A DNA stretch of 64,000 nt from a plasmid. Shown piece by piece: positions 8,437 to 53,458 of the stretch (positions are counted from its first letter, which is position 1; each line of letters starts with the position of its first letter). The stretch is from the sequence record NZ_CP049149.1; one strand, written 5' to 3'. Under the pieces are notes generated by a model. The model made no database searches, was not told the origin of the DNA, and was given only the letters and a program-made list of their open reading frames with translations. The translations under genes were made by a program, and so were the position numbers.

Positions 8437-8451
8437 GAAAACAAGTTGTTT
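8437..8451. promoter_or_regulatory. Palindromic motif GAAAACAAGTTGTTT upstream of parA
   Basis: Member of the recurrent AAAACAAnTTGTTT family (see findings). Confidence 0.35.
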
Positions 8452-8487
8452 CATACGACAATAATTCACGCAAAGGGACTCTCTCCA

Positions 8488-9153
8488 ATGACCAAAATCA
8501 TTGTGGTTGGCGGCACCAAAGGCGGCCCAGGCAAATCGACCGTTGCCCAGCAAATTGCGGTGTGCCTAAAAGTTAAGAAGAAAAAGAAAACGCAGGTCAC
8601 TGACATTGATATTCAGCGCACCACGACGAGCTGGTGCGAAGACCGTCGCCAAAATGAAGACCTTGACCTTATCCCCTTCGCCTACGTTCAGGATGACATC
8701 GTTAAGCACCTTAAATCGCTTCAGGGGCGCGTCGACTATGTTGTAGTGGATGCTGGTGGCTTTGACTCCGAAATCCAGCGACAAGCGATGCTGATGGCTG
8801 ATGTCATCATTATCCCTCTGCGTCCTAAGCGTCGTGATTTGAAATCGCTGCGCGACATCGACCCGATTGTCGACAATGTGCGCACTGTGAACCACAAAGT
8901 GAAGATTCGCGCGGTCATCAACCAGTGTCCGTCTCTGCCTTCACAGGTATCACGTATTCTGGCCGCCAAAGAGATTGTCGAGACATTCGGCATCGAGGCT
9001 GCGCCGGTTAACCTGTACAACCGTAACGTTTATGACGACGCGGAAGAGGCAGGTCGTTCTATATTTGAAATGACTGGCGCTGAACGCGATAAGAAGGCAG
9101 AAGCCGAGTTCGAAGAGTTTGTAGATTACATCATGAGTCTGGAGGAAGAATAA
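8488..9153 (+). CDS. parA: ParA partition ATPase (small, type Ib)
   Basis: Deviant Walker A GGTKGGPGKST. About 220 aa. Followed by a small centromere-binding-protein gene with an ATGA overlap. Confidence 0.75.
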   Translation: MTKIIVVGGTKGGPGKSTVAQQIAVCLKVKKKKKTQVTDIDIQRTTTSWCEDRRQNEDLDLIPFAYVQDDIVKHLKSLQGRVDYVVVDAGGFDSEIQRQAMLMADVIIIPLRPKRRDLKSLRDIDPIVDNVRTVNHKVKIRAVINQCPSLPSQVSRILAAKEIVETFGIEAAPVNLYNRNVYDDAEEAGRSIFEMTGAERDKKAEAEFEEFVDYIMSLEEE

Positions 9154-9512
9154 TGTCCATGAGAATGGGAGACCTTGCAAAGCGCAAAGATCCGGAAGAA
9201 CCGGTAAAAAGCAGCACCCCAATGCGCCAGCCAGTCAGACCGCAGGGGCGTCCGACTCGTGGGAAAGAGAAGATTAAGAGCCGCACAATGTCGCTGGAAG
9301 ACGAGTACTTCGATCTGCTGGAGATGATGAAGTTCATCCCTCGTTTCGAGAAATTCACCCGTTCTGACGTGATTCGTGCAGCCATTTTCCATCTGGCAGA
9401 GAAGTCACCGCAGGAAATCGAGGACATCGTGAAACTGAACGAGGCGATCACCGCTGCCGACGTCACTATGCGCACCGATGAAATTAAGCGTGAGTTGATG
9501 AAAAAAAGTTAA
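9153..9512 (+). CDS. ParG/ParB-like small centromere-binding protein (ribbon-helix-helix)
   Basis: 119 aa with a basic disordered N-terminus and a C-terminal RHH-like segment (MSLEDEYFDLLEMM...). Translationally coupled to parA. Confidence 0.4.
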   Translation: MSMRMGDLAKRKDPEEPVKSSTPMRQPVRPQGRPTRGKEKIKSRTMSLEDEYFDLLEMMKFIPRFEKFTRSDVIRAAIFHLAEKSPQEIEDIVKLNEAITAADVTMRTDEIKRELMKKS

Positions 9513-9515
9513 TTA

Positions 9516-9544
9516 CAGGGGGTGCTTTGCACCCCCTGTTTTAT
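9516..9544 (+). terminator. Rho-independent terminator
   Basis: cagggggtgctttgcaccccctgtttt. Confidence 0.55.
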
Positions 9545-9589
9545 TGTGCTGACAATTACACCAATAAGGCTAATCGAGAAATATCAACC

Positions 9590-10772: not shown

Positions 10773-10790
10773 ATTTTCGATTCATTCAAG

Positions 10791-10850
10791 GACCTGCTTC
10801 TATATATATAAATACTAAGTTACTTATTATTATTTATACGGAAGCAGGTC
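10791..10850 (+). repeat. Large hairpin (10-bp GC stem, 40-nt AT loop containing TATAAATA) followed by a T-run; one of two related elements
   Basis: gacctgcttc...tatatatataaatactaagttacttattattatttatacg...gaagcaggtc ttttt. Related copy at 62250-62306. Confidence 0.4.
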
Positions 10851-10958
10851 TTTTTCTGTGCCAACTTCCCAGACACATTCCCTTCAGTTGCCACTTCCAA
10901 AAGCTGTCTCCAGTCGCTATGATTCGCCCACTATGATAAGTAAGTATCTACCTATCGA

Positions 10959-11693
10959 GTGGAGCACATGAGCCAGATCTTCTTTAAAACTATTAACAAC
11001 GACCAGTACGACTTCATGACCGAGTGGGACACCACAGTCATGGACAAGTGGGTGGCCGAGAATATTGGGATGTCACGCTGCAAGGATGAGGCGGAGCTGT
11101 TCGAGACAAAGTGGTTTGATTACCGCGACATGCACCCGCTTATGGCCACATGCCTCTTCACTGAGGCATACAAGCGCCAGTACTCATACATCATGCTGTC
11201 GCATGGCCGCGAACATTATGAGACGGCCCAATTCACTACCGGTTTGAAACGTGTGCCGTATCAGGAGCTGTCGACGGCCAACAAAACGTCTCTCTGGAAA
11301 GCACGCCAGTTTGCCGATCAGTACTGCTGCTCTTATGACTACTTCATTTCTACCGTTCTTTCCGCAGCTGCACGCCGTCTGTGGGACAAATTACCTCGCC
11401 CCCAGCATCTGTGGCAGCCCGAGCTGATCGAGATATTCGAAGAGAAGTTAGCCAAACGCGCTGTAACCCGTCTGGATGACTCTCTGGTGAGTTTTAAGCA
11501 TCTGGGAGACATGCAGCACGACCCGATTCAAGAACGCTATTTTGAGTGGGTTCTGGAGCGTCTGCGTGGCATTACCCGAGACAAACGTGTCCGCATCATC
11601 TTCTCCGCTGTCTGGTTGATGGAAATCGTGCCTGAGCGTGTGATTTACGCGCACTTTCCGGAAGAACTGGAAGAAGCACGGCGATTCTGTTGA
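10959..11693 (+). CDS. Hypothetical protein
   Basis: 244-aa ORF with good coding statistics. No recognisable motif. Confidence 0.45.
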   Translation: MEHMSQIFFKTINNDQYDFMTEWDTTVMDKWVAENIGMSRCKDEAELFETKWFDYRDMHPLMATCLFTEAYKRQYSYIMLSHGREHYETAQFTTGLKRVPYQELSTANKTSLWKARQFADQYCCSYDYFISTVLSAAARRLWDKLPRPQHLWQPELIEIFEEKLAKRAVTRLDDSLVSFKHLGDMQHDPIQERYFEWVLERLRGITRDKRVRIIFSAVWLMEIVPERVIYAHFPEELEEARRFC

Positions 11694-11719
11694 TCCCCTA
11701 TTTGGCTTTTTTATTATTA

Positions 11720-11734
11720 GAAAACAAATTGTTT
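11720..11734. promoter_or_regulatory. Palindromic motif GAAAACAAATTGTTT, 20 nt upstream of the helicase start
   Basis: AAAACAAnTTGTTT family. Confidence 0.35.
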
Positions 11735-11753
11735 AAGCACCAAAGGAAAGCAC

Positions 11754-16337: not shown

Positions 16338-17660
16338 ATGGAAAAACTAATCGTTTTAAAGCACAAGCTGGATGACATAAAGCCAATGGGAACCAACGCC
16401 AAACGAGAGGCGCTGGCCAATATGGATGACTTCGAGCAAAGCATGGTTGCTCTGATGCTCAACCCGTTCATTCGATTCGGGGTGAAAAAGTACAAAGTGG
16501 CCGCACCGCTTGAAGCGTCTGTGCCCAGCGATCAGACGGTCGTTGAGCTTCTCGAAAAGCTGGCCTCTCGTGAACTAACCGGCAACGCCGCCATTACTGC
16601 GGTCGAGTCTTTGGTTGCCTCAATGTGCGCGGATGGGCAGGACGTATTTCGTCGCTTTCTGCTGAAAGATCCGAAAGCCGGCTTCGGCATTAGCCTCTGC
16701 AACAAGGTTTTCAGGACGCCCATCCCCAAGTTCGAGGTACAGCTGGCGTCTGCGTATAAGGAGAAAGGCGATAAGTACCCTTTCAAGCCAAACCCCAAAG
16801 CCAGATGGCCAATGATTGGGAGCCTTAAACTCGATGGTCTTCGTGTGATCTGCGAAGTCATTGTGGATGAGGAAGAGGTTAACTTTCTGTCACGCACCGG
16901 CAATCCGATTACATCACTGGATCACCTGAAACCAGCCATGCTGGAGCTAGGCAGACTTTCTGGCCACAAACACATCTTTTTTGATGGCGAGGGCACAGCT
17001 GGCTCCTTCAATGAATCGGTGTCGGCGCTGCGGAAGAAAAACGTGAAGGCAATTGGCGCGGTCTACCACGTCTTCGACTTTTTCCTTCCGGAGTGGCGCG
17101 CGATGGCCAAGTCCAAAGAGTACCTGAAGACGGGCATGAAGCTTAAAGAACGTCTGGCTCGCCTGGTGGAGTGGTTCCGCAATACCCGCGGTGAGGACTA
17201 CGCGCCAGATATCCATCTACACCCTTTCTACATCATCCACAGCCATGAAGAGTTCATCGAGCGTTTCATGAAGCGCCTGGATGCGAACGAAGAAGGCGAG
17301 ATGGGCAAAGATCCGGATTCTGTCTATGAGTTCAAGCGCACCCGCAGCTGGTGGAAGTTAAAGGATGAGGATTCCGAAGATGGCGAGATTATTGACTTTG
17401 AGGCAGGCGATCCGGATTCTGGCTTTGCGCATACGCTCGGCAAAATCGTGATTCGTCTGGAGAACGGCGTAGAGGTACGCGCCAGCGGCATTAAGCACAA
17501 GTATCTGGATGAAATCTGGAACAACCAGGGCAAATACCTCGGTCGCATCGTTGAGGTTCACTGCCACGAGAAAACGCCAGACGGAAGCCTGCGCCACCCG
17601 CGTCTGAAATGGCCGAATTGTCTGCGCGATACCGAAGATCGGATTGGAGATAAAGACTGA
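16338..17660 (+). CDS. ATP-dependent DNA ligase
   Basis: Adenylation motif I SLKLDGLRV (KxDG). 440 aa. RBS ggagg. Confidence 0.65.
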   Translation: MEKLIVLKHKLDDIKPMGTNAKREALANMDDFEQSMVALMLNPFIRFGVKKYKVAAPLEASVPSDQTVVELLEKLASRELTGNAAITAVESLVASMCADGQDVFRRFLLKDPKAGFGISLCNKVFRTPIPKFEVQLASAYKEKGDKYPFKPNPKARWPMIGSLKLDGLRVICEVIVDEEEVNFLSRTGNPITSLDHLKPAMLELGRLSGHKHIFFDGEGTAGSFNESVSALRKKNVKAIGAVYHVFDFFLPEWRAMAKSKEYLKTGMKLKERLARLVEWFRNTRGEDYAPDIHLHPFYIIHSHEEFIERFMKRLDANEEGEMGKDPDSVYEFKRTRSWWKLKDEDSEDGEIIDFEAGDPDSGFAHTLGKIVIRLENGVEVRASGIKHKYLDEIWNNQGKYLGRIVEVHCHEKTPDGSLRHPRLKWPNCLRDTEDRIGDKD

Positions 17661-17836
17661 TGCTCGGCTGGATGCTGCTGTATTTGCTCATTGGCATCAT
17701 CATTGGCGGCCTCATTATGGCTGACCGCATCAGCGATTACGTGAAAGCGGGAGTGATGGAGAGAAGAGGGCGTATTTATCGCATCGTCGATGTGACTGAC
17801 ACGTTTAAGGAGATAAAGGATGATCATGTTAAGTAA
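17660..17836 (+). CDS. Small single-TM protein (58 aa), paralogue of 18032-18184
   Basis: ATGA overlap with the ligase stop codon. MLGWMLLYLLIGIIIGGLIM... ending in RIYRIVDVTD. Not in the ORF track because it is shorter than 60 aa. Confidence 0.35.
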   Translation: MLGWMLLYLLIGIIIGGLIMADRISDYVKAGVMERRGRIYRIVDVTDTFKEIKDDHVK

Positions 17837-18035
17837 ACGAGAAAGGGAAACACTAAGAGAAATCAGCAAATGGTCGCGCTTCTATGCGCACTGGCAACCA
17901 AAAACGCGCGCCAAACTGGAGCGGATGAACCTGGTGGCCAACGTAGAGCCGAACGGCAAACCCGAGAACTACCAGCTGACCAATAAAGGACGCCAGCTGC
18001 TGCAACAACTTATCGAGGCGGGGGTATACGCATGA
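17820..18035 (+). CDS. Hypothetical small protein
   Basis: RBS aaggag. 71 aa, basic. Confidence 0.35.
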   Translation: MIMLSKRERETLREISKWSRFYAHWQPKTRAKLERMNLVANVEPNGKPENYQLTNKGRQLLQQLIEAGVYA

Positions 18036-23284: not shown

Positions 23285-23515
23285 TTAGATCTCGTTGAGT
23301 TCGCGAACAATGTGACCTTTCAGTTTTCTACGCAACATGGTCGCAGAAGAACGTTTTTTGGCCGACATTAAATTAGTTTTCAGAACCTCAACTTTGGTTT
23401 CCAGGTTCGCTGAATGAGCGATACGCTCGGAATTAATCAGAGTCTGAAACGCTTTCTTCTCACCGGCATTGGGGGTGAGAAGCGCGGAACGTTGCTGTTT
23501 ATTACAGTACTGCAT
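23285..23515 (-). CDS. Small basic hypothetical protein
   Basis: 76 aa. Overlaps the upstream gene by 14 nt. Confidence 0.35.
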   Translation of the reverse strand: MQYCNKQQRSALLTPNAGEKKAFQTLINSERIAHSANLETKVEVLKTNLMSAKKRSSATMLRRKLKGHIVRELNEI

Positions 23516-24068
23516 AGTTGGCCCTCCCCTCTATAACTGTTTTGTATGCACGTAAGTCTTCCGGCAATAATGAGCGTGGAGCTTTCTTATACATACCCGT
23601 GCGTTCATTATAGCGTGGTTCACTTTTTAACCCAAGTAAATAGTCATAGGTCTCTTCCAATGACACACGACGCCCGACATCGACGGCACCACCGGCAGCC
23701 GCCTGAAAAACAAACCCTCCCACGTCGAATTTTTCATAATGAGCGATGAGTGCCAGCGATACCTTTTGAAGAACTACCGCACTGCCGAGACCAGCAAAAG
23801 GAACATGATGAAAATCGCCTAAGTTGCCCATGCCGTCATATACGTCAAAGTAAACTTCGGCCATACCGTTTGGTGGAAACGGCACACCTTCTGGCAACTC
23901 GTATCCAATTTTCGTGAAAGTTCTCTCATCAACCAAGCTACCGATTATAACGATGTAAACTTCCTGACCGGCCGCGAAAATGTAGCCATGATGAATGCGA
24001 TGATCATATTCGAATTTTTTACGCCGTAAGCCGTAATCATCGAGGTATACAACTTCTTCGTCGCTCAC
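23502..24068 (-). CDS. Hypothetical protein
   Basis: 188-aa ORF. No recognisable motif. Confidence 0.4.
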   Translation of the reverse strand: MSDEEVVYLDDYGLRRKKFEYDHRIHHGYIFAAGQEVYIVIIGSLVDERTFTKIGYELPEGVPFPPNGMAEVYFDVYDGMGNLGDFHHVPFAGLGSAVVLQKVSLALIAHYEKFDVGGFVFQAAAGGAVDVGRRVSLEETYDYLLGLKSEPRYNERTGMYKKAPRSLLPEDLRAYKTVIEGRANYAVL

Positions 24069-24230: not shown

Positions 24231-24250
24231 TACTGTACAAACATACAGTT
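24231..24250. promoter_or_regulatory. LexA-box-like sequence (CTGT-N8-ACAG) upstream of the recombinase gene
   Basis: taCTGTacaaacatACAGtt, 28 nt upstream of the ATG at 24276. Confidence 0.3.
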
Positions 24251-24275: not shown

Positions 24276-25379
24276 ATGAAAAACACCTTTGATAAAGCAC
24301 GCGCAGCCGAAAACACCTCACGCGAGGCCATTGCTTATCTCGAACGGGCAGCAGGCCTGACGGCGGTATCGACCATTAACCTGGATGGGGACATGCGGTT
24401 CTCATCGGCATTCATGTTATTCACTCGCTTATCTTTATTGATAACGAGACGTCGACCGGAGATAGCCGTCCATTGTGTTTTGATACATGTTATGCCACAC
24501 ATTGCTGATGTTAAGGTAAGTGACATCAATAGGGTACTGGTCAACCAGCTGGTAAACCCGCTGATCCTGGAGGGCAAGATTGTCCAGGGCAGACGTGTGT
24601 TCTCGCTGATGAAGCAGTTTCTTGGCTGGTGTGCATTTCAGGGTGTAATTGAAACCTCTCCGCTTAATGACATCTCTCTGAACAAAGTCGCCGGTGGCGC
24701 TAAGCCTGTGCCGCGGGAACGGAAGCTGACAGATGCCGAAGTGTGGGTGTTCTGGAACGTCTGGGATTACTTCAACGTTTGCGAAGGGACGAAATGGGCT
24801 GCCAGACTCTGTCTTGTAGCTGCCAGACGCCCTGATGAAGTGCTCCGCGCGAAGAAGAGCGAGTTTAACCTTCAGCGTGATGTATGGAATCAAGGCACCC
24901 GCAACAAATCGGGCCGACAGCACAGTCTCCCGTTAAGCCCCTTAATGCGGCAATGTGTTGAGAAACTGTTTGAGTACGGAAAGGGGAGCCAATGGCTTGT
25001 CCCGTCGAACAAGAAGCGCGGCGAGGATGTGCCAATGTCTAAGGTGGCCATAGCGCAGTCATTGCGTAGGATTCTGGAGCGTCCTGAAATGATGGAGTTA
25101 GAGCCGTTCACCCCACGCGATTTGCGAAGAACCGCGCGCAGCTACTTTCCGGCTCTAGGGATCAGTCAGGAAGTCGCTCGTAAGATAATGAACCACAGCC
25201 TTGAGGGAATCGACCGTGTCTACGACCGCCACGACTATATTGAGGAGATGCGAGACGCCTTAGACAGTTTCTCGGCGCACATCGCATCCATCGTGGAACA
25301 GCCAGACCTGGACGAAATTGACCACAAATTTAAAGGTGATCGTCTTGCCACTGAGCTTATTCGCGTGAATTTCTCATAG
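24276..25379 (+). CDS. Tyrosine site-specific recombinase (Cre/XerD-like; probable dimer resolvase or integrase)
   Basis: C-terminal catalytic R..H-x-x-R..Y pattern (PRDLRRTARSYF, HSLEGIDRVYDRHDY). 367 aa. Confidence 0.7.
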   Translation: MKNTFDKARAAENTSREAIAYLERAAGLTAVSTINLDGDMRFSSAFMLFTRLSLLITRRRPEIAVHCVLIHVMPHIADVKVSDINRVLVNQLVNPLILEGKIVQGRRVFSLMKQFLGWCAFQGVIETSPLNDISLNKVAGGAKPVPRERKLTDAEVWVFWNVWDYFNVCEGTKWAARLCLVAARRPDEVLRAKKSEFNLQRDVWNQGTRNKSGRQHSLPLSPLMRQCVEKLFEYGKGSQWLVPSNKKRGEDVPMSKVAIAQSLRRILERPEMMELEPFTPRDLRRTARSYFPALGISQEVARKIMNHSLEGIDRVYDRHDYIEEMRDALDSFSAHIASIVEQPDLDEIDHKFKGDRLATELIRVNFS

Positions 25380-25760
25380 AGACTTGATGGCCTCAACAAC
25401 CTTCTCTGAAGCCCCTTGCTGGCCATCGAAACGCTTGCGGAAAGCCTCTAATACGAGTTTCTCATCTGCGGTTAGCGGAGCTGTGCCTTCTTCGCGGAAG
25501 AACTGGAGGAGTTCAGGCTGGCGTTCTTCCAGAACCATCAACATCAGTCGAACCGGGTCTGCGTCAAGCGCGTTCGCCAAAAGACGAACCTTGTCAATTG
25601 GCAATGGGATTTTGCCGCTTTTTATAAGTGAAAGGTTATTGGGGTTTTTGTATCCAATTTCTTTCGCGATCACTGCCTGACTTTTGGGGGAAATTGTAAT
25701 CAGTGAGTCAATGTATGCCGCGTAGCGGCTTACTTTCGCTTCGGTTTCGTTGGTAGCCAT
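25374..25760 (-). CDS. XRE-family HTH transcriptional regulator (candidate prophage repressor)
   Basis: HTH in SPKSQAVIAKEIGYKNPNNLSLIKSGK. 128 aa. A divergent AT-rich control region lies upstream at 25761-26017. Confidence 0.55.
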   Translation of the reverse strand: MATNETEAKVSRYAAYIDSLITISPKSQAVIAKEIGYKNPNNLSLIKSGKIPLPIDKVRLLANALDADPVRLMLMVLEERQPELLQFFREEGTAPLTADEKLVLEAFRKRFDGQQGASEKVVEAIKSL

Positions 25761-26017
25761 GTTTTTCGACCTTGCGTGTTTTGATTTTCTCTGGTAAGTG
25801 CTTATCGATATTACAGCAAAGGTTAGGGTTGTAAAGACTTATCTATCCTTTTTACAAGGCGCTTTCGTAAATTTAATCAGGCATTACAGTGCGTTGCGAT
25901 AATCTCTTCTTCCTAACCACAAAATATTTTAAGTTATTTCTGATACAGAACTGTTCCGTATTGATACACTAGGTAGTAATATTGTGAGCTTCAAACGTGA
26001 TAATTGGATAATGCCAA

Positions 26018-26230: not shown

Positions 26231-26302
26231 GCCTCAATACCTCTTCTTGCCTGTACGAGCAGCTTAGCTCCCTGTTCGTACAGTGATAATTTATAAGCAT
26301 CA

Positions 26303-26318
26303 GAAAACAAATTGTTTT
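26303..26318. promoter_or_regulatory. Palindromic motif GAAAACAAATTGTTTT upstream of the cobT-like gene
   Basis: AAAACAAnTTGTTT family. Confidence 0.35.
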
Positions 26319-32541: not shown

Positions 32542-32560
32542 TATTTAATTTATAAGATAA

Positions 32561-32575
32561 GAAAACAATTTGTTT
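32561..32575. promoter_or_regulatory. Palindromic motif GAAAACAATTTGTTT upstream of the HNH endonuclease gene
   Basis: AAAACAAnTTGTTT family, lying inside the dnaE split. Confidence 0.35.
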
Positions 32576-32589
32576 AGTGAGTTTAAGTA

Positions 32590-34957: not shown

Positions 34958-35539
34958 TTATGCGTAAACTTCTTCTTCGTGGTCATGCGGGCGAAGGAGT
35001 GAGTGCGCGATTGACTCCACTTCCTGAATGTCGCCAAATGCTCTTAAACGCAGGGCAAGGTTCCACTTGTTCAATGTGTACGCGTTACGCACCAGCTCTT
35101 CCCGCGCTTTTGCGTCTTTGCTGTCGAGACGACCGCAATCATTCAACCATTTAGCGACGTCTGACCAGTCCCAGAGTGGAGACTGACCGCTGATGCGCTG
35201 AATTGGGCAAGGGAAATCACCTTTGCCACGTAAACCGTCTTTAAGCAGAGTGATAGCCTGGCGAGTTAAGCCGGAGAGTTGAGCAATATCACTCAAGCCT
35301 ACCAGTGCTGAATCTACTGATTCAACCACTGCGCCGATACCTGCTGTTTCAATATTATCGATCGCCGATTTAATTGCCTCATCTAAAGATTCGGCTTCTC
35401 GGTCAAATTCTACATACACTGAGCTGCCGTAATAACAGATGAGCGCGTCATCGCAACCGTTGGTGTACAGCGCGTCTGCAAGACCTTCAGTCTCCATCTG
35501 CACACCCGATAATGTCAGTGTAAAATTATAGAGTTCCAT
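34958..35539 (-). CDS. HicB-like antitoxin candidate
   Basis: Downstream partner of a HicA-like small gene. N-terminus YNFTLTLSGVQMETEGLADALYTNGCDDALICYYGSSVYVEFD loosely resembles the HicB RNase-H-like fold. Weak. Confidence 0.3.
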   Translation of the reverse strand: MELYNFTLTLSGVQMETEGLADALYTNGCDDALICYYGSSVYVEFDREAESLDEAIKSAIDNIETAGIGAVVESVDSALVGLSDIAQLSGLTRQAITLLKDGLRGKGDFPCPIQRISGQSPLWDWSDVAKWLNDCGRLDSKDAKAREELVRNAYTLNKWNLALRLRAFGDIQEVESIAHSLLRPHDHEEEVYA

Positions 35540-38918: not shown

Positions 38919-41264
38919 ATGGCAAAAGGAAAATCCGCTCTTGCGCTGGCACTGAAAAAGAAAATTGGCAGCAACGACGAAATTCAGAAGGTCACGCACT
39001 GGATTGACAGTGGCTACCCTCCGCTGAATAAAGCGATCTCCGGACGTTTCGACGGCGGCTTCCCATGTGGGCGCATCGTTGAGGTATTTGGGCCACCAAG
39101 CGCGGGGAAATGTGTTACCGCAGACACCATGCTGCTGACGGAGCGTGGAATGGTAACAGTGAAAGAACTGTTTGAGATTGAGGGGCACAAAGCAACATGC
39201 ACTACTCGCGATGTAGAGCATAACGTTGGACTCATCAATGAAAATGGCGTGATAGAGAAGACCTCACACCTGACATGGAACAACCGTCGCAAATTCAAGC
39301 GCATTAAGCTGGCATCAGGGGGTTACATCGAGGCTACGTTCCGTCACCCAATTCGTGTGGTTGACGACTTAGGCAATATCGTCTGGCGGTATGCTGAAAA
39401 AATCAGTGTAGGCGACACGATTCCTTCAATGGTTGGCACACATCAATTCGGCGATCAGCACTTGGACGCCAATATCGCAAAACTGATGGGCTATTTAATT
39501 GCTGACGGATACGTGGCCTCTGAAAATTCTGTGCATTTTTCTAACACAGATCCATTCATCAAGGATGAGTACTACCGCCTCATTTCGCTGGTATCAGACA
39601 AGATGCCAGTTACGAGAAAACATAACGGCTCGGAAGACCATGTGCTGTTTAGCAAAGAGGTGCGTTCGCTGCTTTTTAAAGAATATGGTCTGGAGTATGA
39701 GAAAGCTGCTGGCAAGCAGGTTCCGTTGAGTGTGCGTCGCGCCAATAGCGAGGCTCAAATTGCATTCCTTCGCGGCTACTTTGAGCTGGAATGCCACGTC
39801 AATGATGGTCGCTGCATTGAGGTTGTGAGCGCGAGTGGGCTGCTGCTACAGCAAATTCGCCTCATGCTCCTGAATCTGGGGATTACGTCAACTATCTCTG
39901 AAAAACACGTCGCAGGTTATAAAAACATATATTACCGGCTGTCATTCAGTGGCTCTAACTACGACCTTTTCCTGTCAACGATTGGGTTCGAGTCTCCGGC
40001 TCGTTTAGCAGTGGCAACCAAACGGGACATTAGTTTTGACCGCACTTATTTAGGCTACGTTCCGCACATCAGCGGCTTAGTGAAATCACTCTACGAGTCA
40101 CTCACCAAGACCTCTCGTAAAGACTACGTTCTGGTAGATCACGTTATTGGCCGCGGCGATCGTGTCGGAATAGACAAACTACGAGAAATCTATGTCTCCT
40201 TCATTGGCAGAAAGAATCGTTTTAACGAGCATCTGTTTGCACAACTGGCAGCGGTAATTGACTCTAACTTGTTCTACGACGAAGTCGTGGCTATTGAGGA
40301 AGGTGAAGCACCAACGTTCGACGTAGCGATGCCGGAAACACACTCTTTCTGGTCTAACGGGATTATCAGCCACAACACATTCCTCGCGACGGCTGCAATG
40401 GTGTCAGCACAGAAACAGGATGGTCTGGCCGTATTCCTCGACCACGAAAACAGTTTTGACGTTGGCCTGGCAGTGGCTAACGGTCTGAACGCAGATGAAG
40501 ATGACGGCCAGTGGGTCTACAAACAGCCTGACACCTTCGAAGATTCGGTTGAGCTTATTGGCACCATCCTCAAGCTGGTGCGCGATGAAGAGTTAATTCC
40601 GGAAGACGCACCAATTTGTATCGTGGCCGACTCGCTGGCGTCTATGGTGCCGAACTCCAAAGCCGAGAAGTTCGACAAGATGGCGGATGGCACCGCGAAG
40701 GACAAAGACCAGCTGAATATGAACGACAATACGGCGCTGGCGCGCGCGACGAGTGCGAACTTCCCTACTCTGGCGCTCTGGGCGAGAAAATATAACGCCT
40801 GCATCATTTTCTTGAATCAGGTGCGTACAAAGATTGGTGTGATGTTTGGCGATCCGACAACGTCTCCGGGCGGCGACTCGCCAAAGTTTTACGCGTCAGT
40901 GCGCATCCGTCTGGGTGCATCTGTCATGAAGGACGGCAAAGACAAGATTGGGCAAGACGTGGGTGCCGAGTGCATCAAAAACAAAGTGGCGACGCCATAC
41001 GGCAAATGCTCATGGAAGTTTTACTTCGACCCGAGCCGCGGTCTCGACGTCATCGAGTCTTTAGTTGAGTACATGCTGGAAGAAGGATACCTGCCAAAGA
41101 ACGCCAGCGGCCGAGTAGAGATTGGCGACAAGAAGTTCACCAAATCGCAGATCGTCGACATGTACCGCGAGAAGCCCCTTTCGGAGATCATCGCAGCGCT
41201 GCAAGCGATTGACGAAAGACGTGCCAAAGAAACGGCACCAGAAATCGAAGAAGAAGTTGAGTAA
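38919..41264 (+). CDS. RecA/UvsX-like recombinase containing an intein in the P-loop
   Basis: The exteins reconstitute the Walker A motif GPPSAGK|TFLATA. Total extein length is about 359 aa. The C-extein carries the RecA-fold core (..IFLNQVRTKIGVMFGDPTTSPGG..). Confidence 0.75.
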   Translation: MAKGKSALALALKKKIGSNDEIQKVTHWIDSGYPPLNKAISGRFDGGFPCGRIVEVFGPPSAGKCVTADTMLLTERGMVTVKELFEIEGHKATCTTRDVEHNVGLINENGVIEKTSHLTWNNRRKFKRIKLASGGYIEATFRHPIRVVDDLGNIVWRYAEKISVGDTIPSMVGTHQFGDQHLDANIAKLMGYLIADGYVASENSVHFSNTDPFIKDEYYRLISLVSDKMPVTRKHNGSEDHVLFSKEVRSLLFKEYGLEYEKAAGKQVPLSVRRANSEAQIAFLRGYFELECHVNDGRCIEVVSASGLLLQQIRLMLLNLGITSTISEKHVAGYKNIYYRLSFSGSNYDLFLSTIGFESPARLAVATKRDISFDRTYLGYVPHISGLVKSLYESLTKTSRKDYVLVDHVIGRGDRVGIDKLREIYVSFIGRKNRFNEHLFAQLAAVIDSNLFYDEVVAIEEGEAPTFDVAMPETHSFWSNGIISHNTFLATAAMVSAQKQDGLAVFLDHENSFDVGLAVANGLNADEDDGQWVYKQPDTFEDSVELIGTILKLVRDEELIPEDAPICIVADSLASMVPNSKAEKFDKMADGTAKDKDQLNMNDNTALARATSANFPTLALWARKYNACIIFLNQVRTKIGVMFGDPTTSPGGDSPKFYASVRIRLGASVMKDGKDKIGQDVGAECIKNKVATPYGKCSWKFYFDPSRGLDVIESLVEYMLEEGYLPKNASGRVEIGDKKFTKSQIVDMYREKPLSEIIAALQAIDERRAKETAPEIEEEVE
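39111..40376 (+). mobile_element. Intein (422 aa) with LAGLIDADG homing-endonuclease domain
   Basis: Starts with Cys immediately after GPPSAGK and ends with ...IISHN followed by Thr. Contains LAGLIDADG motifs LMGYLIADGYV and LRGYFELECHV. Confidence 0.7.
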
Positions 41265-41296: not shown

Positions 41297-41315
41297 TCAT
41301 TATTATCACCATTAA

Positions 41316-41331
41316 GAAAACAATTTGTTTT
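41316..41331. promoter_or_regulatory. Palindromic motif GAAAACAATTTGTTTT
   Basis: AAAACAAnTTGTTT family, 70 nt upstream of the ATG at 41401. Confidence 0.35.
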
Positions 41332-42382: not shown

Positions 42383-42717
42383 AAACACGGCTTGCTCTGG
42401 CTGTTTTGCTCTTATCCCATTCCATTTCTGCTGACACTCGCATTTATGAGTGCGAGATGTCTGTGGCCGAAACAAAAAAAGACACGCTGACAAACGTCGT
42501 TAAAGCGCCCTATGGAGCGATGGTTGTGGATAGCGGGGAGCAATTTTACATCGTTCGCGATGACCGCGTTTTGTCCTCTCCTTACCTTACAAGACGCGAC
42601 AACAAACTGACCGGCGTCGGTGAGGACAAGCTTGTTTACAACAAATCAGGTGATAGCTACGGCGTTCACGCAAAGGACGCCAGTTACCTTTTCGATGACT
42701 GCAAGGAGGTTGGTTAA
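42379..42717 (+). CDS. Secreted hypothetical protein (signal peptide)
   Basis: MKTRLALAVLLLSHSISA signal peptide. 112 aa. Confidence 0.4.
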   Translation: MKTRLALAVLLLSHSISADTRIYECEMSVAETKKDTLTNVVKAPYGAMVVDSGEQFYIVRDDRVLSSPYLTRRDNKLTGVGEDKLVYNKSGDSYGVHAKDASYLFDDCKEVG

Positions 42718-42929
42718 TGGCGATGACACTGACAGGTCTGGAAATCGAAAAAACGAGCGGCTACTGGCGCGCCAAAGGATTCAGAAAGTCCGATGTGATG
42801 GAGCGCCTGGAGCGTGAAGACGGCTTTATAGTCCACCAGCGTCGCGAATGGCGCATGTACGATCCGGAAAGCGGAAAGCTCACATCCAAAGCACAAACCC
42901 TCTGGGGGCTGCTGAAAAAAATCATCTGA
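42717..42929 (+). CDS. Hypothetical protein
   Basis: 70-aa ORF coupled by ATGA. Confidence 0.3.
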   Translation: MAMTLTGLEIEKTSGYWRAKGFRKSDVMERLEREDGFIVHQRREWRMYDPESGKLTSKAQTLWGLLKKII

Positions 42930-46382: not shown

Positions 46383-47468
46383 ATGACTGTTCCATACGGG
46401 GTGATTTCAGATCCCCATTATCATCGTTGGGATGCTTTTGCGACAACTAACTCTGACGGTCTGAACTCCAGACTGGAGATTCAACTCGACGCAACCAAAG
46501 AAGCGGCGAGAGCCATGAAAGCGGCAGGATGCCAGTACATGCTGGTGGCTGGCGACACGTTCCATGTACGAGGCGCAGTATCACCTTCCGTTCTGCACTT
46601 TGTCACAGAAACCTACGAGTGGATCATCAAAGAGCTTGGCCTTGAAGTGGCTATGCTGGCCGGGAACCACGACCTCGAAACTAACGACTCTGTCTACAGC
46701 GCCAACGCTGCGGCGTCGTTGCGCTCGATTGGCGTGGAGATCGTCTGCGGCAAGCGTGCCCACTCCATCAAAATGGGTGACGTTACCGTTCATATGATGA
46801 GCTGGCGCAACAACCACGCGGAGCTTATCAGCGACCTCAAGACACTGCGTTCCGGGCTGTCTGGCGACAAGCATGACGTTGTAGTGCATACCTCGATCAA
46901 CAAAGCAATCCCAACGATGCCAGATGTGGGCATCGATGCGCAGGAGCTGAAAGACATTGGCTTCCGCCTGCTCTTGTCTGGCCATTACCACAATCACAAA
47001 GAAGTGCTGCCGGGTGTGGTGAGCATCGGCGCTCTGACACATCAGAATTGGGGCGATGTGGGGTCGCTGGCCGGTTTCATGATCGTGAACCCAGACGGCA
47101 CTTTCACCCACCACGAAACCTCGGCGCCCAAGTTCGTGAACCTGGAAGACGACGTCGACGATTCGCTGATCCGCGGCAACTACGTGCGCTTCCGCGCCGT
47201 CGTCGAAAGTGATGAAGAAGGCATCAAAATCCAGAACGTCCTTAAAACGATGGGAGCCAAAGGCGTCGTATGCAACTTCATCCGCAAGGCCTCAATGATG
47301 GAAGGCACTGCCAGCACCGCAGAGACCAGCAAGATTGACAGCCTGGGCGAGTCCGTTGCGGCCTACTGCAAGATCGTCCACGACACAGACGGCGGCTTCG
47401 ACCTGAGCAAACTGGACATGTTGTGTCAGGAAATCCTGACCGAAGCAGAGAGTGCGGAGGCAGTGTGA
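46383..47468 (+). CDS. SbcD/Mre11-like nuclease (T4 gp47-like)
   Basis: Calcineurin-like phosphoesterase motifs DPHYH, GDTFH and GNHD. Confidence 0.7.
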   Translation: MTVPYGVISDPHYHRWDAFATTNSDGLNSRLEIQLDATKEAARAMKAAGCQYMLVAGDTFHVRGAVSPSVLHFVTETYEWIIKELGLEVAMLAGNHDLETNDSVYSANAAASLRSIGVEIVCGKRAHSIKMGDVTVHMMSWRNNHAELISDLKTLRSGLSGDKHDVVVHTSINKAIPTMPDVGIDAQELKDIGFRLLLSGHYHNHKEVLPGVVSIGALTHQNWGDVGSLAGFMIVNPDGTFTHHETSAPKFVNLEDDVDDSLIRGNYVRFRAVVESDEEGIKIQNVLKTMGAKGVVCNFIRKASMMEGTASTAETSKIDSLGESVAAYCKIVHDTDGGFDLSKLDMLCQEILTEAESAEAV

Positions 47469-47701
47469 TGACGACCGGTTCTGCGGGCTTTTACGACTAT
47501 GCGAGCGCAATGGAGAGGCTTGCTCGTGGGCAGACCGTGATGGTTCACAAGCCCTACCCGTCTGGTGGGAATCCCCTGGCGTTTTATCTGGGAAGACTGA
47601 CAGAACAAGGTGTGTTGAAGCGCCAGTCTTTTCCGGCTCACACAGAGTTCAGATTACAAAAAGGTCAAAAACTGACGCGTAAGATCAGAGGCGTTAAATG
47701 A
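47468..47701 (+). CDS. Small hypothetical protein between sbcD and sbcC
   Basis: 77-aa ORF with ATGA overlaps at both ends. Confidence 0.3.
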   Translation: MTTGSAGFYDYASAMERLARGQTVMVHKPYPSGGNPLAFYLGRLTEQGVLKRQSFPAHTEFRLQKGQKLTRKIRGVK

Positions 47702-50929: not shown

Positions 50930-50967
50930 GTCCGATATTGATAGATAAGTGCTTATCTAATAACATT

Positions 50968-50998
50968 AAGCCACTACATATAGTGGCTTTTTTTTTTG
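50968..50998 (+). terminator. Rho-independent terminator
   Basis: aagccactacatatagtggcttttttttttgg. Confidence 0.55.
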
Positions 50999-51006
50999 GA
51001 GGACAC

Positions 51007-53355
51007 ATGATAACCATCGTTAAACGTAACGGTTCAACTGAGCCGCTGTCAGAGGAAAAATATAATCGCGTTGTGATGTGGGGCGTAGAGAACATTCGCA
51101 ACGTTAGCGCGTCTGCCATCGCTATGGGCGCAGCCGCAAGCATTTTTGATGGTATGACCACCAGCCAGCTGCATGAGGCTCTGGTGAAGTCAGCTGCCGA
51201 TTTAATCTCTAAAGAGACTCCGAACTATTCCCAGGTTGCGGCGCGTCTGAGCCTGTTCAAGATCCGCAAAGATGCGTTCGGCCAGTACGCTTACCCACAC
51301 TTCTATCACCACATTGTGAGCAACGTTAGCCGCAGTGTTTATGATGAAGAGCTGCTGAAATCCTACACTCGTGAGGAAATCGACGAGCTGGGTGCCTACA
51401 TCAAGCCTATGCGCGACGAGTTTTTCAGCTATGCCGCCACCGTTCAGCTGGCCAGCAAGTACCTTGTTCAGAACCGCGTTACTGGTCAGGTTTATGAGGC
51501 GCCGCAGCAGCTCTATATGCTGGTGGCCATGTGCCTGTTCCAGAATTGGGAAGATGGCTGTGCGGGCAAATCTCGACTGGAGATGGTCAAAGGCTTCTAT
51601 GACGTCACCAGTACCTTCAAACTCTCTCTGCCAACACCCATCATGGCCGGTGCTCGTACTCCGACTCGCCAGTTCTCCAGCTGTGTGCTGATTGAGGCAG
51701 AAGACAGCCTGAAAGGGGTTAGCGCTGCATCTGCTGCGATTATTGACTATGTATCGCGCCGTGCAGGTATTGGCATCGGCTTTGGTCGTCTGCGTGCGCT
51801 GGGCAGTGAGATCCGCAATGGCGAAGCTATCCACACTGGCGTTATCCCGTTCCTGAAACATTTCCAGACCGCAGTGAAGTCTTGCTCCCAGGGCGGCGTT
51901 CGTGGCGGCGCGGCGACAGCGTACTACCCAATCTGGCACCTCGAAGTTGAGAGCCTTTTGGTAGTGAAAAACAACCGGGGTGTTGAGGAAAACCGCGTCC
52001 GTCACCTGGACTATGGCGTGATGATAAACCGTCTGATGTATCGCCGTCTGGTACGCAACGAAAACATCACTCTTTTCAGCCCACATGATGTACCGGACCT
52101 GTACGATGCGTTTTTTGCCGATCAGGACAAATTTGAAGAGCTGTATGCACAGTACGAAGCAGATGAGAGCATTCGTAAGAAGTCGATTCCGGCTGTGGAA
52201 CTGTTCTCTACGCTGTTGCAGGAACGTGCTTCTACTGGCCGCGTGTATATCGCCAACGTTGACCATATGAACGAGCACGGGTCTTTCGATCCGGAAGTTG
52301 CGCCGGTTCGCCAGTCCAACCTCTGCGCGGAGATCACGCTGCCAACCAAACCGCTGGCTTACACTGACGATCCGAATGGTGAAATCGCGCTTTGCACCCT
52401 GTCTGCCTTTAACCTCGGGGCAATCGACTCTCTGGACAGCCTGAAAGATGTCGCGTTCTATGCGGTTGCGGCTCTGGATTCACTGCTGGACTATCAGGAC
52501 TACCCGCTGGCTGCTGCCGAAGTTCCGGCAAAAGCACGTCGTAGCCTCGGCATCGGCGTAACCAACTTCGCCTACTATCTGGCCAAGAACGGCTTCAACT
52601 ACTCCGACGCCGCTGGCAACCAGCTGGTGCATGAGACGTTTGAAGCGATCCAGTATTACCTCCTCGATGCAAGCTGCCGCCTGGCTGAAGCCAAAGGCGC
52701 GTGTGAGTGGTTCTCCCACACCAAGTATGCGAAGGGGCTGCTGCCTGTAGACCATTACCGCAAGACGCTGGACGCCAATCCAGAAACGTCCTTCGAACTG
52801 AAAATGCCGTGGGAAGAGCTGCGTGGCCGCATTCTCAAGCATGGTCTGCGTAACTCGACGCTGTCTGCCCAGATGCCTTGCGAGACTTCCAGCCAGATCA
52901 CCAACTCCACCAATGGCATCGAGCCGCCGCGCGGTCCGGTTTCCGTCAAGTCTTCAAAAGACGGCATTGTGAAGATGGTTGTTCCGGATTTCGAGCAGCT
53001 GAAAGACCAGTACGAGTACCTCTGGGATATGCCGGACAACCACGGCTATCTGACGAAGGTGGCAATCATCCAGAAGTTCTTCGATCAGTCTATCTCGGCC
53101 AACACCAACTATGACCCGACTCGCTTCCCTGGCGACAAGGTTCCAATGATGAAGCTGCTTGAAGACTTGCTCTACGCGTACCAGCAGGGCGTCAAGTCCC
53201 TCTACTACCACAATACGCGTGATGGCGCTGGCAAGCGCGACGATGAAGAGTCTGCCTCTCCGGAGCCGACTGTGGTGGTCAAGCCCGAACCAGTGGCTGA
53301 ACCAGAACCCGTTGTTGAGCGAGAAGAAGAATACGACTGCGGTTGCAAGATCTGA
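51007..53355 (+). CDS. nrdA: Ribonucleotide reductase class Ia alpha subunit
   Basis: N-terminal ATP cone (MITIVKRNGSTEPL). Catalytic core (NLCAEI, PCETSS). C-terminal CxxC (YDCGC). RBS ggagg. Confidence 0.85.
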   Translation: MITIVKRNGSTEPLSEEKYNRVVMWGVENIRNVSASAIAMGAAASIFDGMTTSQLHEALVKSAADLISKETPNYSQVAARLSLFKIRKDAFGQYAYPHFYHHIVSNVSRSVYDEELLKSYTREEIDELGAYIKPMRDEFFSYAATVQLASKYLVQNRVTGQVYEAPQQLYMLVAMCLFQNWEDGCAGKSRLEMVKGFYDVTSTFKLSLPTPIMAGARTPTRQFSSCVLIEAEDSLKGVSAASAAIIDYVSRRAGIGIGFGRLRALGSEIRNGEAIHTGVIPFLKHFQTAVKSCSQGGVRGGAATAYYPIWHLEVESLLVVKNNRGVEENRVRHLDYGVMINRLMYRRLVRNENITLFSPHDVPDLYDAFFADQDKFEELYAQYEADESIRKKSIPAVELFSTLLQERASTGRVYIANVDHMNEHGSFDPEVAPVRQSNLCAEITLPTKPLAYTDDPNGEIALCTLSAFNLGAIDSLDSLKDVAFYAVAALDSLLDYQDYPLAAAEVPAKARRSLGIGVTNFAYYLAKNGFNYSDAAGNQLVHETFEAIQYYLLDASCRLAEAKGACEWFSHTKYAKGLLPVDHYRKTLDANPETSFELKMPWEELRGRILKHGLRNSTLSAQMPCETSSQITNSTNGIEPPRGPVSVKSSKDGIVKMVVPDFEQLKDQYEYLWDMPDNHGYLTKVAIIQKFFDQSISANTNYDPTRFPGDKVPMMKLLEDLLYAYQQGVKSLYYHNTRDGAGKRDDEESASPEPTVVVKPEPVAEPEPVVEREEEYDCGCKI

Positions 53356-53416
53356 TAAGCGTGGGGAGAAATCCCCACTTTTTCATTTTGTTGCACGCCT
53401 TATTTTCACCAATAAG

Positions 53417-53458
53417 ATAACAACTTGTTTTGATAGTCATTAAAACAAATTGTTAAAA
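53417..53458. promoter_or_regulatory. Two tandem copies of the palindromic motif (GATAACAACTTGTTTTGA and TAAAACAAATTGTTAAAA) upstream of nrdB
   Basis: AAAACAAnTTGTTT family. Confidence 0.35.

Follow-up and report, generated by a model that had tools for sequence, protein, structure and literature searches.

A conserved 15-bp palindrome at core promoters of SSU5-type phage-plasmids: candidate operator of an element-encoded repressor

Regulons built on dispersed operators are of a known kind. In the plasmid prophage P1, a single short operator is repeated across many promoters, among them that of ban, a DnaB-type helicase gene; operators dispersed in this manner therefore allow one protein, the C1 repressor, to hold both lytic and replication functions off. 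In the IncP plasmid RK2, KorA and KorB have 12-13-bp palindromic operators at a dozen or so promoters around the replicon, and one global regulator doubles as partition protein, KorB being a ParB-family HTH protein. Omega of the inc18 plasmids (pSM19035) is a ribbon-helix-helix global regulator whose heptads, WATCACW, lie in arrays of 7-10, and T4-type phages carry promoter-early stem-loop (PeSL) cassettes. In the phage-plasmid N15, the centromeres are four separate single inverted repeats, IR1-4 (PMC7205306).

The window (the whole stretch of DNA analysed, 64 kb) comes from an SSU5/pHCM2-type phage-plasmid of Cronobacter, and we class its motif 1 set as a new case of this kind. Motif 1 is a 15-bp palindrome, AAAACAA-N-TTGTTTT (AAAACAANTTGTTTT), in which inverted heptads AAAACAA and TTGTTT(T/A) surround one free base, usually with (A/C)AG in front. 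As in P1, a short word recurs at many separate promoters of a plasmid prophage; however, P1 C1 binds as a monomer to an asymmetric 17-mer, ATTGCTCTAATAAATTT, which was not present when looked for here, whereas motif 1 is a dyad with a candidate repressor only, and its copies in relatives lie directly on the terminase operon. The parallel with RK2 lies in short palindromes at promoters around the replicon, but the KorB operator TTTAGCSGCTAAA was absent when searched for here, and in the lysogen the SSU5-like ParB-N-domain genes are silent. Omega offers a 7-bp heptad unit in direct or inverted pairs, and the possibility that a small partner of a ParA-type ATPase could be both centromere-binding protein and multi-promoter repressor. 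In contrast, motif 1 joins two inverted heptads across a 1-bp spacer and occurs at ~20 promoters, the partner is a putative ribbon-helix-helix protein, and a search here for WATCACW heptad arrays returned none. N15 likewise has isolated palindromes scattered without an array, but its four sites are bound by SopB (ParB-type), whereas SSU5-like elements have ~20 sites on core promoters and a small Walker ParA with a non-ParB partner. Near-identical early-gene units recur in SSU5-like relatives as PeSL cassettes do, although PeSL lack operator dyads and the SSU5-like unit includes two palindromes that are putatively protein-binding.

With up to two mismatches allowed, motif 1 matched nine times in the 64-kb window against ~0.4 expected (shuffle mean 0.40, maximum 3; 0 of 100 shuffles reached 9), starting at 1669, 8438, 11721, 16343, 26304, 32562, 41317, 53417 and 53442. 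The promoter and motif features are as follows.

1669-1683, plus strand: doubtful motif 1 copy TAAACAATTTGTTTA at the 5' end of a lipoprotein ORF, codons 8-13 (motif search)
8395-8423, plus strand: putative sigma-70 promoter of the par operon, TTTACA-17 nt-TAGGCT (footprinting)
8438-8452, plus strand: motif 1 copy AAAACAAGTTGTTTC in the parA promoter (conserved island in alignment)
8488-9153, plus strand: parA, small Walker-type ParA/MipZ ATPase (Pfam MipZ, AAA_31, CbiA)
11690-11717, plus strand: sigma-70-type promoter TTGATC-16 nt-TATTAT of the helicase gene (promoter scan)
11721-11735, plus strand: motif 1 copy AAAACAAATTGTTTA in the DnaB-like helicase promoter, ATG 18 nt on (motif search)
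16343-16357, plus strand: probable chance match AAAACTAATCGTTTT in codons 2-7 of the DNA ligase gene (motif search)
26284-26292, plus strand: extended -10 TGaTAATTT of the cobT promoter, 11 nt ahead of the palindrome (conservation)
26304-26318, plus strand: perfect motif 1 copy AAAACAAATTGTTTT ahead of cobT, ATG at 26337 (motif search, alignment)
32562-32576, plus strand: motif 1 copy AAAACAATTTGTTTA at the HNH endonuclease gene, ATG at 32590 (motif search, Pfam)
41317-41331, plus strand: perfect motif 1 copy AAAACAATTTGTTTT ahead of the DUF7238 ORF at 41401 (motif search, alignment, Pfam)
53417-53431, plus strand: distal tandem copy ATAACAACTTGTTTT ahead of nrdB (motif search, alignment)
53442-53456, plus strand: proximal tandem copy AAAACAAATTGTTAA, nrdB ATG at 53487 (motif search, alignment)

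By annotated start codons, seven of the nine matches are intergenic in a window that is ~88% ORF (binomial P ~1e-5), and they precede six genes: parA, the dnaB-like helicase gene, cobT, the HNH gene splitting dnaE, the DUF7238 ORF and nrdB (two copies). A first-pass annotation of this DNA had described a recurrent near-palindrome upstream of at least six genes, and both this and the expected enrichment over shuffled controls are borne out, with 13-21 copies found per relative in addition; its sites are real, with coordinates one lower because a preceding G was counted. Pfam confirmed its gene identities (ParA/MipZ ATPase, DnaB_C helicase, CobT, DnaE split by an HNH_3/NUMOD3 gene, DUF7238 and the ribonucleotide reductase small subunit). 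A fixed distance to start codons, also considered there, was not found, as the interval from motif end to ATG spreads over 13-69 nt (35 nt at parA, 18 at dnaB, 18 at cobT, 13 at the HNH gene, 69 at ORF 41401, and 30 and 55 at nrdB). The copy in the lipoprotein ORF, previously called coincidental, is retained in a 98% identical relative but is doubtful, because it lies within an ORF and a motif 1 search of the SSU5 tail and lysis region yielded no counterpart. The match at 16343, missing from the earlier list, looks like chance because both of its mismatches hit the most informative core positions.

Across related elements, motif 1 was the top genome-wide palindrome, with 20 copies in a Cronobacter relative, 21 in SSU5, 19 in Cyrano, and 20 and 13 in Klebsiella elements, and it is retained at orthologous promoters in five related enterobacterial elements. 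Footprinting alignment showed the dyad as a conserved island at parA, dnaB, cobT, nrdB and ORF 41401; the parA copy has a variant C at its last base that is kept in SSU5, Cyrano and Klebsiella. The tandem nrdB copies lie 25 bp apart, and SSU5 and Cyrano have just one copy there. In 42 SSU5-like viral contigs, the centres of paired copies are spaced 51 bp or 25 bp only, the 25-bp spacing of nrdB being found again at nine loci. Upstream partner copies are inverted with their internal asymmetry unchanged. The early-gene region of relatives contains near-identical units that flank small ORFs and consist of a hairpin, an inverted copy, TGnGATAAT, ACACCAACAAG, a further copy and a ribosome-binding site, and these units look like mobile regulatory cassettes. 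Elements from Acinetobacter, Aeromonas and Moellerella hosts lack motif 1; in the phage-plasmids of the first two, which are syntenic, promoter spacers hold other palindromes, ~27 copies per element, so that dispersed dyads embedded in promoters are a trait of the family and the position of the dyad relative to the promoter can shift, as that of operators can. Collectively, motif 1 is supported as a genuine conserved cis-regulatory dyad at replication, partition and nucleotide-metabolism promoters, the gene functions that the first-pass annotation had named.

Conserved sigma-70 -35/-10 or extended -10 elements precede motif 1 by 3-14 nt (gaps by footprinting of 14, 3-4, 11 and 10 nt), and given this variable gap the dyad is unlikely to be part of a polymerase recognition element. 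The -10 of the par promoter ends 14 nt ahead of the palindrome, and its TAGGCT is invariant across five genomes, with TTGTCA and an unchanged 17-nt spacing in a divergent Klebsiella element. At the helicase gene, the -35 (TTGAtc) and spacing are kept in five genomes, and the -10 ends 3 nt ahead of the palindrome, so transcription would be expected to start within the left half-site. The TGnTAnnTT of cobT is kept in the window, SSU5, Cyrano, Klebsiella and E. coli L016; the HNH-gene copy occupies the 48-nt gap between the dnaE N-terminal part and the HNH endonuclease gene; and a terminator hairpin and a TATTAT -10 element (41301-41306) lie upstream of the 41317 copy. The basis for these promoter assignments is footprinting at a few loci together with paralogous cassettes, and -10 scoring against the mirrored flank was not significant in four of five genomes, owing to AT-richness on both sides. 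An extra direction-dependent constraint on motif 1 is hinted at by its one-sided AAG flank. Overall, motif 1 is placed as a repressor operator would be and not as an activator site would be; the alternative of an activator of a middle gene class, raised by the first-pass annotation, is disfavoured, as sites lie downstream of the -10 and three copies (dnaB, cobT, HNH) end just 13-18 nt before the ATG, so that no transcription could start downstream of them.

In RNA-seq of the LF82/Cyrano lysogen (PMC9928086), first genes behind motif 1 copies were at background (TerS 7.1, cobT 7.8, CYRAN_58 5.7, nrdB 12.9, helicase 21; element median 9.8), except for the par operon at 50-89. This silence is equally expected if motif 1 promoters need a missing activator. 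From the evidence as a whole, we favour, at a probability of about 0.58, the reading that a dimeric DNA-binding repressor, itself a product of the phage-plasmid, uses motif 1 as its operator and holds promoters off in the plasmid state. The copies would then lie within the core of the host sigma-70 promoters from which rightward transcription units are read, namely those for early genes, replication, nucleotide metabolism and partition and, in relatives, also the terminase operon. A copy beginning 3-14 nt past the -10 would cover roughly -3 to +22, with a second, inverted copy centred near -38 in early-gene cassettes, and the bound protein may occlude RNA polymerase or block its escape. About 20 dispersed promoters would thus be held off in the plasmid-prophage state, and in a cell without repressor they would fire with unmodified host polymerase.

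Other roles for the word are improbable to differing degrees. Copies might form a phage-specific promoter class, (ATAAG)AAAACAANTTGTTTA, read by a phage sigma-like factor, activator or polymerase with the start at its 3' end: the block is ~20 nt long, oriented with the gene, and ends 13-69 nt before start codons in a T7-type-like geometry, an ATAAG-like 5' flank is common to both palindrome families, and the genes behind the copies stay silent in the lysogen, as the lack of a lytic-phase factor would predict. We consider this improbable, because sigma-70 -35/-10 elements are conserved upstream at distances that vary, inverted partner copies lie upstream of the same promoters, known promoters do not have near-perfect twofold symmetry, early genes need reading by unmodified host polymerase, and a non-exhaustive check of the annotations of six related genomes showed no RNA polymerase or sigma-like gene. 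It is similarly doubtful that the copies serve primarily as scattered centromeres for the ParA/partner system, any effect on transcription being secondary. Every enterobacterial genome examined has the parA promoter copy, no repeat array that could be a conventional centromere was seen near the par operon, the partner's conserved segments and presence/absence fit motif 1, N15 provides a precedent, and in the distant Moellerella element the sole AAGAAAACAA/TTGTTTA heptad pair near a conserved gene is upstream of parA. However, the latter is one weak match in an AT-rich genome, ~20 sites far exceed partition needs, DNA binding by the partner is putative, and strict placement just past the -10, fixed 25/51-bp pairs and copies before small early ORFs are left unexplained.

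FljA of Salmonella reportedly has fliC mRNA as its target. An FljA-family protein (PF03614) is encoded outside the window in all motif 1 genomes and absent from Acinetobacter and Aeromonas, and many copies lie between the putative start and the ribosome-binding site, as an RNA-level 5' UTR element, for example the target of a translational repressor, would. Nevertheless, such an element is very unlikely: single-stranded RNA recognition gives no rationale for exact reverse-complement symmetry, for most copies a hairpin would be negligible to marginal (-0.7 to -1.8 kcal/mol, z about 0), promoters have partner copies on their upstream side, and the expected dnaB start inside the dyad would leave only part of it transcribed. 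A binding site for a host factor common to Enterobacteriaceae would account for an identical motif across Cronobacter, Salmonella, Escherichia and Klebsiella elements and for its absence from the elements of Acinetobacter, Aeromonas and Moellerella, but is highly improbable, since among 2.9 million viral contigs paired copies are almost confined to SSU5-like contigs and none of the compared consensuses (LexA, KorA/B, omega, P1 C1) match; we know of no enterobacterial regulator with the motif 1 consensus.

Under the favoured repressor-operator reading, two proteins encoded in the window come into question as the binder; they are listed here with a palindrome of a second family.

9153-9512, plus strand: ParA partner protein, 119 aa, leading in-window candidate for motif 1 binding (conservation, presence/absence, expression)
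25374-25760, minus strand: XRE-type HTH gene, disfavoured as motif 1 binder
25793-25806, no strand assigned: motif 2 palindrome GGTAAGTGCTTATC directly upstream of XRE, the most conserved block there in four genomes

The first-pass annotation had proposed an operator for the prophage repressor, for example XRE; the operator of an element-encoded regulator stands as the best reading, but XRE is an unlikely binder. That XRE is the lysogeny master repressor acting on motif 1 at all sites would agree with its place among the core genes when family members occur as plasmids (912 PLSDB records), with its well-conserved HTH core among enterobacterial lineages, and with its ~10-fold expression above background in the Cyrano lysogen, where it was termed a putative master repressor (PMC9928086). 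SSU5, isolated as a phage, lacks XRE and is readable as a virulent deletion derivative; yet, without XRE, integrase and orf70, it keeps 21 motif 1 sites at equivalent promoters. That SSU5 keeps the sites without the only annotated lysogeny repressor is also a counterpoint to the repressor reading itself. The XRE helix variants P0017 (KYQNQVSF) and P0033 (NPNILSLIKKGR) and a 44%-identical Klebsiella form all occur with unchanged motif 1, whereas the Acinetobacter element, which lacks motif 1, has a helix (PNVLSMIKSG) almost matching the Klebsiella one. In addition, half-site centres 8 bp apart with continuous 7+7 bp conservation would be unusual for Cro/CI-type HTH dimers. A search of the divergent XRE control region found no motif 1 copy; the conserved palindrome there, directly upstream of XRE, is of the motif 2 family (GGTAAGTGCTTA(C/T)C) and is more likely than motif 1 to be the XRE-associated operator.

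The best candidate, still a tentative one, is the ParA partner protein. It occurs in six of six motif 1 genomes and was undetected in Acinetobacter and Aeromonas, and even in homologues as low as 48% identity its segments SRTMS-EDE and FTRSDVIRAAI do not vary. Searches against Pfam, PDB and Foldseek gave no match and no detectable DNA-binding family membership; we read the protein as a putative ribbon-helix-helix type. Its own operon has a conserved weakened motif 1 copy and is the sole motif 1 operon expressed in the lysogen (partner homologue at 89 against a median of 9.8; PMC9928086), as expected under negative autoregulation by the partner. If the repressor-operator reading is true, a family of phage-plasmids common in gut bacteria would keep its replication, partition and early genes off while it resides as a plasmid.

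A 15-bp dyad, AAAACAA-N-TTGTTTT (motif 1), recurs in the window at a real frequency beyond chance. A search for AAAACAANTTGTTTT with up to two mismatches returned 9 matches in 64 kb, compared with a mean of 0.40 in 100 dinucleotide-preserving shuffles, none of which gave 9, and allowing three mismatches added just three further weak matches. Seven of the copies are intergenic according to the annotated start codons, in a window of which ~88% is ORF, and these promoter-proximal copies present one putative operator sequence recurring at many separate promoters. The first-pass annotation had described a recurrent near-palindrome ahead of at least six genes, and this description is borne out: its coordinates hold with an offset of one base, and Pfam agrees with the neighboring gene identities (ParA/MipZ ATPase, DnaB_C helicase, CobT, DUF7238 and ribonucleotide reductase small subunit) and with an HNH gene inside dnaE.

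Copies of motif 1 in the window (start positions)
1669, within a lipoprotein ORF; doubtful or chance match
8438 (8438-8452), ahead of parA
11721, ahead of the DnaB-like helicase gene
16343, within a ligase gene, two core positions mismatched; doubtful or chance match
26304, ahead of cobT
32562, ahead of the HNH gene inside dnaE
41317, ahead of the DUF7238 ORF at 41401
53417 and 53442, ahead of nrdB

The window is 98-99% identical to ~110-kb Cronobacter plasmids and ~80-83% identical to Salmonella phage SSU5, Escherichia phage Cyrano, and Klebsiella phage-plasmids, and is on this basis assigned to the SSU5/pHCM2-type phage-plasmids. Whole genomes of a Cronobacter relative, SSU5, Cyrano, two Klebsiella elements, and one element each from Acinetobacter, Aeromonas, and Moellerella were compared. 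AAACAA-N-TTGTTT is the top palindrome by a wide margin in each of the enterobacterial genomes, and related enterobacterial genomes contain 13-21 copies of motif 1 each (up to two mismatches). The copies are found at the orthologous promoters of parA, dnaB, cobT, the DUF7238 ORF, and nrdB and, outside the region covered by the window, ahead of many small early ORFs and as a tandem pair ahead of the small terminase gene. Among 2.9 million viral contigs, motif 1 pairs occur at 44 loci, 42 of which are SSU5-like, with only two spacings: a 64-nt span (33 loci, 51 bp from center to center) and a 38-nt span (9 loci, 25 bp). A scan of assembled-genome contigs for AAGAAAACAANTTGTTTA gave nearly exclusively single, chance-like matches in unrelated genomes, and one SSU5-like Kluyvera contig contained two.

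Two genes of the window differ in structure among the relatives. dnaE (30178-34490) is present as two ORFs on either side of a free-standing gene for an HNH_3/NUMOD3 endonuclease (32590-33324), which has its own motif 1; in a 98% identical relative dnaE is intact. A divergent Klebsiella element also has dnaE in two parts, and the gap between them contains a tandem motif 1 pair and no gene annotated as an endonuclease. The recombinase ORF (38919-41264) encodes 781 aa compared with 359 aa in the closest relative, with ~1.4 kb of extra in-frame sequence in place of ~130 nt, perhaps an inserted domain or an intein; a gene of similar length in Cyrano is annotated as RecA.

Within each half-site of motif 1 all seven bases are informative, the central base is free, and most copies read with the downstream gene as (A/C)AG-AAAACAA-N-TTGTTTA. 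Alignment of orthologous upstream regions revealed the dyad as a conserved island in diverged surroundings, and footprinting placed conserved -35/-10 elements 3-14 nt upstream of it at the window sites, with a variable gap between the -10 element and the dyad. In the early-gene cassettes of the relatives, a second, inverted copy lies 51 bp upstream, and the two copies flank an extended -10 element (TGnGATAAT or TATTAT) that is 12-13 nt from the downstream copy. The best -10 match upstream of the copies did not differ significantly from that of the mirrored downstream flank in four of the five genomes, and the promoter assignments are therefore treated as putative and footprinting-based.

Putative promoter elements at window sites, assigned by footprinting
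parA: TTTACA (TTGTCA in the divergent Klebsiella element), 17 nt, TAGGCT; 14 nt to the dyad
dnaB: TTGATC, 16-17 nt, TAnnAT; 3-4 nt to the dyad
cobT: TGnTAnnTT; 11 nt to the dyad
ORF 41401: terminator, then TATTAT; 10 nt to the dyad

Expression values for every gene in the LF82/Cyrano lysogen are available from RNA-seq (PMC9928086). Apart from the par operon, the first genes behind motif 1 are at background level, and the par operon (50-89, versus an element median of 9.8) is the sole motif 1 operon that is clearly expressed. The parA copy (8438-8452) and its orthologs always end in C (TTGTTTC), a conserved change of the last base that would fit a deliberately weakened operator. Genes on the opposite strand are switched on in the same lysogen, including the gene for the XRE-type helix-turn-helix protein (96), RepA (133), a 92-aa protein (114), and toxin-antitoxin pairs (PMC9928086).

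Expression of first genes behind motif 1 in the Cyrano lysogen (PMC9928086)
TerS: 7.1
cobT: 7.8
CYRAN_58: 5.7
nrdB: 12.9
Early ORFs: 6-13
Helicase: 21
Element median: 9.8

These data are best accommodated if motif 1 serves as the operator of a repressor and is set within about 20 sigma-70 promoters, a reading to which we assign a probability of about 0.58. Lysogen silence behind the motif fits repression in the plasmid state, and a missing activator would also fit it. An activator of a middle gene class had indeed been proposed, and the geometry argues against it: three copies stop 13-18 nt short of the ATG, separated from it by nothing but a ribosome-binding site, and the distance from the -10 elements upstream is variable, which therefore places the dyad at or just past the putative transcription start rather than at an upstream activator site. 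None of six related genomes has an annotated phage-type RNA polymerase gene, and none was seen among the window proteins scanned, a check that is not exhaustive. A function as an RNA hairpin was rejected for most copies, at which the hairpin is marginal. Compared with known systems, the repressor-operator reading has functional parallels. The P1 C1 regulon resembles motif 1 in its dispersed operators, a likeness of function and not of membership; the P1 operator ATTGCTCTAATAAATTT has one match in the 64 kb, with 3 mismatches. The omega heptad regulon of inc18 plasmids, the KorA/KorB regulon of RK2 (IncP), and the scattered centromere palindromes of N15 are likewise functional analogs, and the PeSL units of T4-type phages are analogous to the repeated early cassettes of the relatives. 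For the KorA/KorB operators OA and OB, nothing better than 2 mismatches was found and no match fell at a motif 1 site; none of the operator sequences of the compared systems was found in the window.

The window also shows strong enrichment of a second family of palindromes, ATAAGT(A)-N4/N8-(T)ACTTAT (14 observed versus 1.4 expected, and 13 versus 1.2). The members of this family, of ~16-20 bp each, are mostly located 8-15 nt upstream of a -10-like hexamer and are interleaved with motif 1 along common gene clusters; the second family precedes cobS and motif 1 precedes cobT in the window, and in the relatives the same holds for nrdA and nrdB, respectively.

Copies of the second palindrome family in the window
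1966
5574
10936
14903
18483
21563
28684
42182
46248
55733
63827
25793-25806, GGTAAGTGCTTATC, directly upstream of the XRE gene

The syntenic elements Acinetobacter pPB364_1 and Aeromonas pKAM329_1 are devoid of motif 1 and carry ~27 copies of aatCAGTCAsTACTGACT and ~27 copies of gatCAGTAAryryTTACTG, respectively, abutting -10-like TATACT or TATAAT. The half-site of the second family matches these palindromes, which are the sole dispersed ones in both elements, indicating that the whole phage-plasmid family marks rightward promoters with palindromes and that motif 1 was added to this scheme in those elements from Enterobacteriaceae that were examined.

The XRE-type protein (25374-25760, minus strand), previously suggested as the binder of motif 1, is an unlikely fit for this role. 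Its divergent control region (25761-26017) contains no motif 1 within 3 mismatches; SSU5 lacks XRE, the integrase, and orf70 and keeps all of its motif 1 sites; and natural variants of the XRE recognition helix coexist with an unchanged motif. In addition, the Acinetobacter helix is similar to the Klebsiella helix, yet the Acinetobacter element is without motif 1. The most conserved block upstream of XRE in four genomes is a different palindrome of the second family, GGTAAGTGCTTA(C/T)C, and the window copy at 25793-25806 is probably the XRE control site. XRE is a core gene among plasmid-state relatives. It was not recognized in Pfam and PDB sequence searches, and a homolog search beyond the family for operator linkage returned SSU5-like contigs only. 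A LexA-box-like sequence, TACTGTACAAACATACAGTT (24231-24250), with a perfect CTGT-N8-ACAG core lies between a leftward 188-aa gene (23502-24068) and the integrase gene, whose ATG is at 24276. Because the related phage Cyrano is reportedly induced by genotoxic stress, this sequence may provide an SOS input.

The ranking of candidate repressors drew solely on their presence or absence across genomes and on their expression in the lysogen. Five small proteins are present in all motif 1 genomes and undetected in the Acinetobacter and Aeromonas elements.

Small proteins sharing the distribution of motif 1
119-aa ParA partner, 9153-9512, plus strand
71-aa protein, 17820-18035
70-aa Cra-like protein, 42717-42929
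FljA-family protein (PF03614)
92-aa protein

The ParA partner is the best candidate among them, because it is well expressed in the lysogen, has motif 1 in its operon, and contains two segments (SRTMS-EDE and FTRSDVIRAAI) that are invariant down to 48% identity. Its start overlaps the stop codon of parA (8488-9153; ParA/MipZ, 221 aa) by one base, and this order of a small Walker ParA and a small partner is that of a type Ib partition cassette. The pattern SRTMSLEDEY...FTRSDVIRAAI resembles a ribbon-helix-helix protein; a Pfam scan of 14 homologs, a PDB profile search, and Foldseek gave nothing significant in support of this fold, and hhalign against ribbon-helix-helix sequences was non-significant. 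In the AlphaFold model of the monomer, helices span 48-61 and 70-84 and pLDDT averages 65. Upstream of parA there is a single dyad and no nearby repeat array that could serve as both centromere and operator. The Moellerella element has no motif 1 regulon, carries AAGAAAACAA and TTGTTTA heptads upstream of parA, and conserves the strand of the ParA partner, giving a weak hint that the dyad may have begun as a par operator.

Several other proteins were set aside. The 92-aa protein, encoded after a UvsW-like helicase gene outside the window, varies in its presumed DNA-facing residues among genomes that share motif 1, and a HicB/Xis-like 193-aa protein (34958-35539) is missing from both Klebsiella elements. 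An 88-aa winged-helix protein and the ParB-N proteins are of low priority, being silent in the lysogen (5-9.5 for the ParB-N genes; PMC9928086) and occurring in lineages without motif 1. The FljA-family protein (PF03614, E = 2e-70), whose two repeated segments look Sm/Hfq-like, is encoded by all motif 1 elements (39713-40243 in the Cronobacter relative, outside the window; SSU5, Cyrano, and Klebsiella have orthologs). In its place, the Acinetobacter and Aeromonas elements encode Hfq. Upstream of the small terminase gene (Cronobacter relative 47450-47530; SSU5 55-134), the tandem motif 1 pair precedes a terminator-like hairpin, GAGCGCAAGGATGCGCTC, which is itself followed by TGAGTGTTTT, suggesting that the late operon may also be under antitermination control.

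A more inclusive scheme, which we consider unlikely as a whole, would have the ParA partner read motif 1, with the ~20 promoter-embedded dyads serving as both centromeres and operators. The regulon would then have grown in Enterobacteriaceae from one par-operon operator still visible in Moellerella, and the remaining promoters would be controlled by the older XRE-linked palindrome family, which the Acinetobacter and Aeromonas elements share.

The searched literature contained no account of motif 1, of SSU5-group operators, or of the lysis-lysogeny circuitry of this group. Klebsiella, E. coli, Enterobacter, and Salmonella (Typhi included) very commonly carry phage-plasmids of the SSU5/pHCM2/pKpn/pSLy3 type, and the core genes searched match ~800-900 PLSDB records each. 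These elements bear resistance genes. Motif 1 provides a sequence signature for spotting SSU5-type elements in assemblies, and its presence at about 20 promoters offers a bait for the putative repressor, a prediction of the regulon, and a means of testing whether partition and lytic control are coupled. If the ParA partner is the reader of motif 1, one protein would both segregate the plasmid and keep the early lytic and replication program silent.
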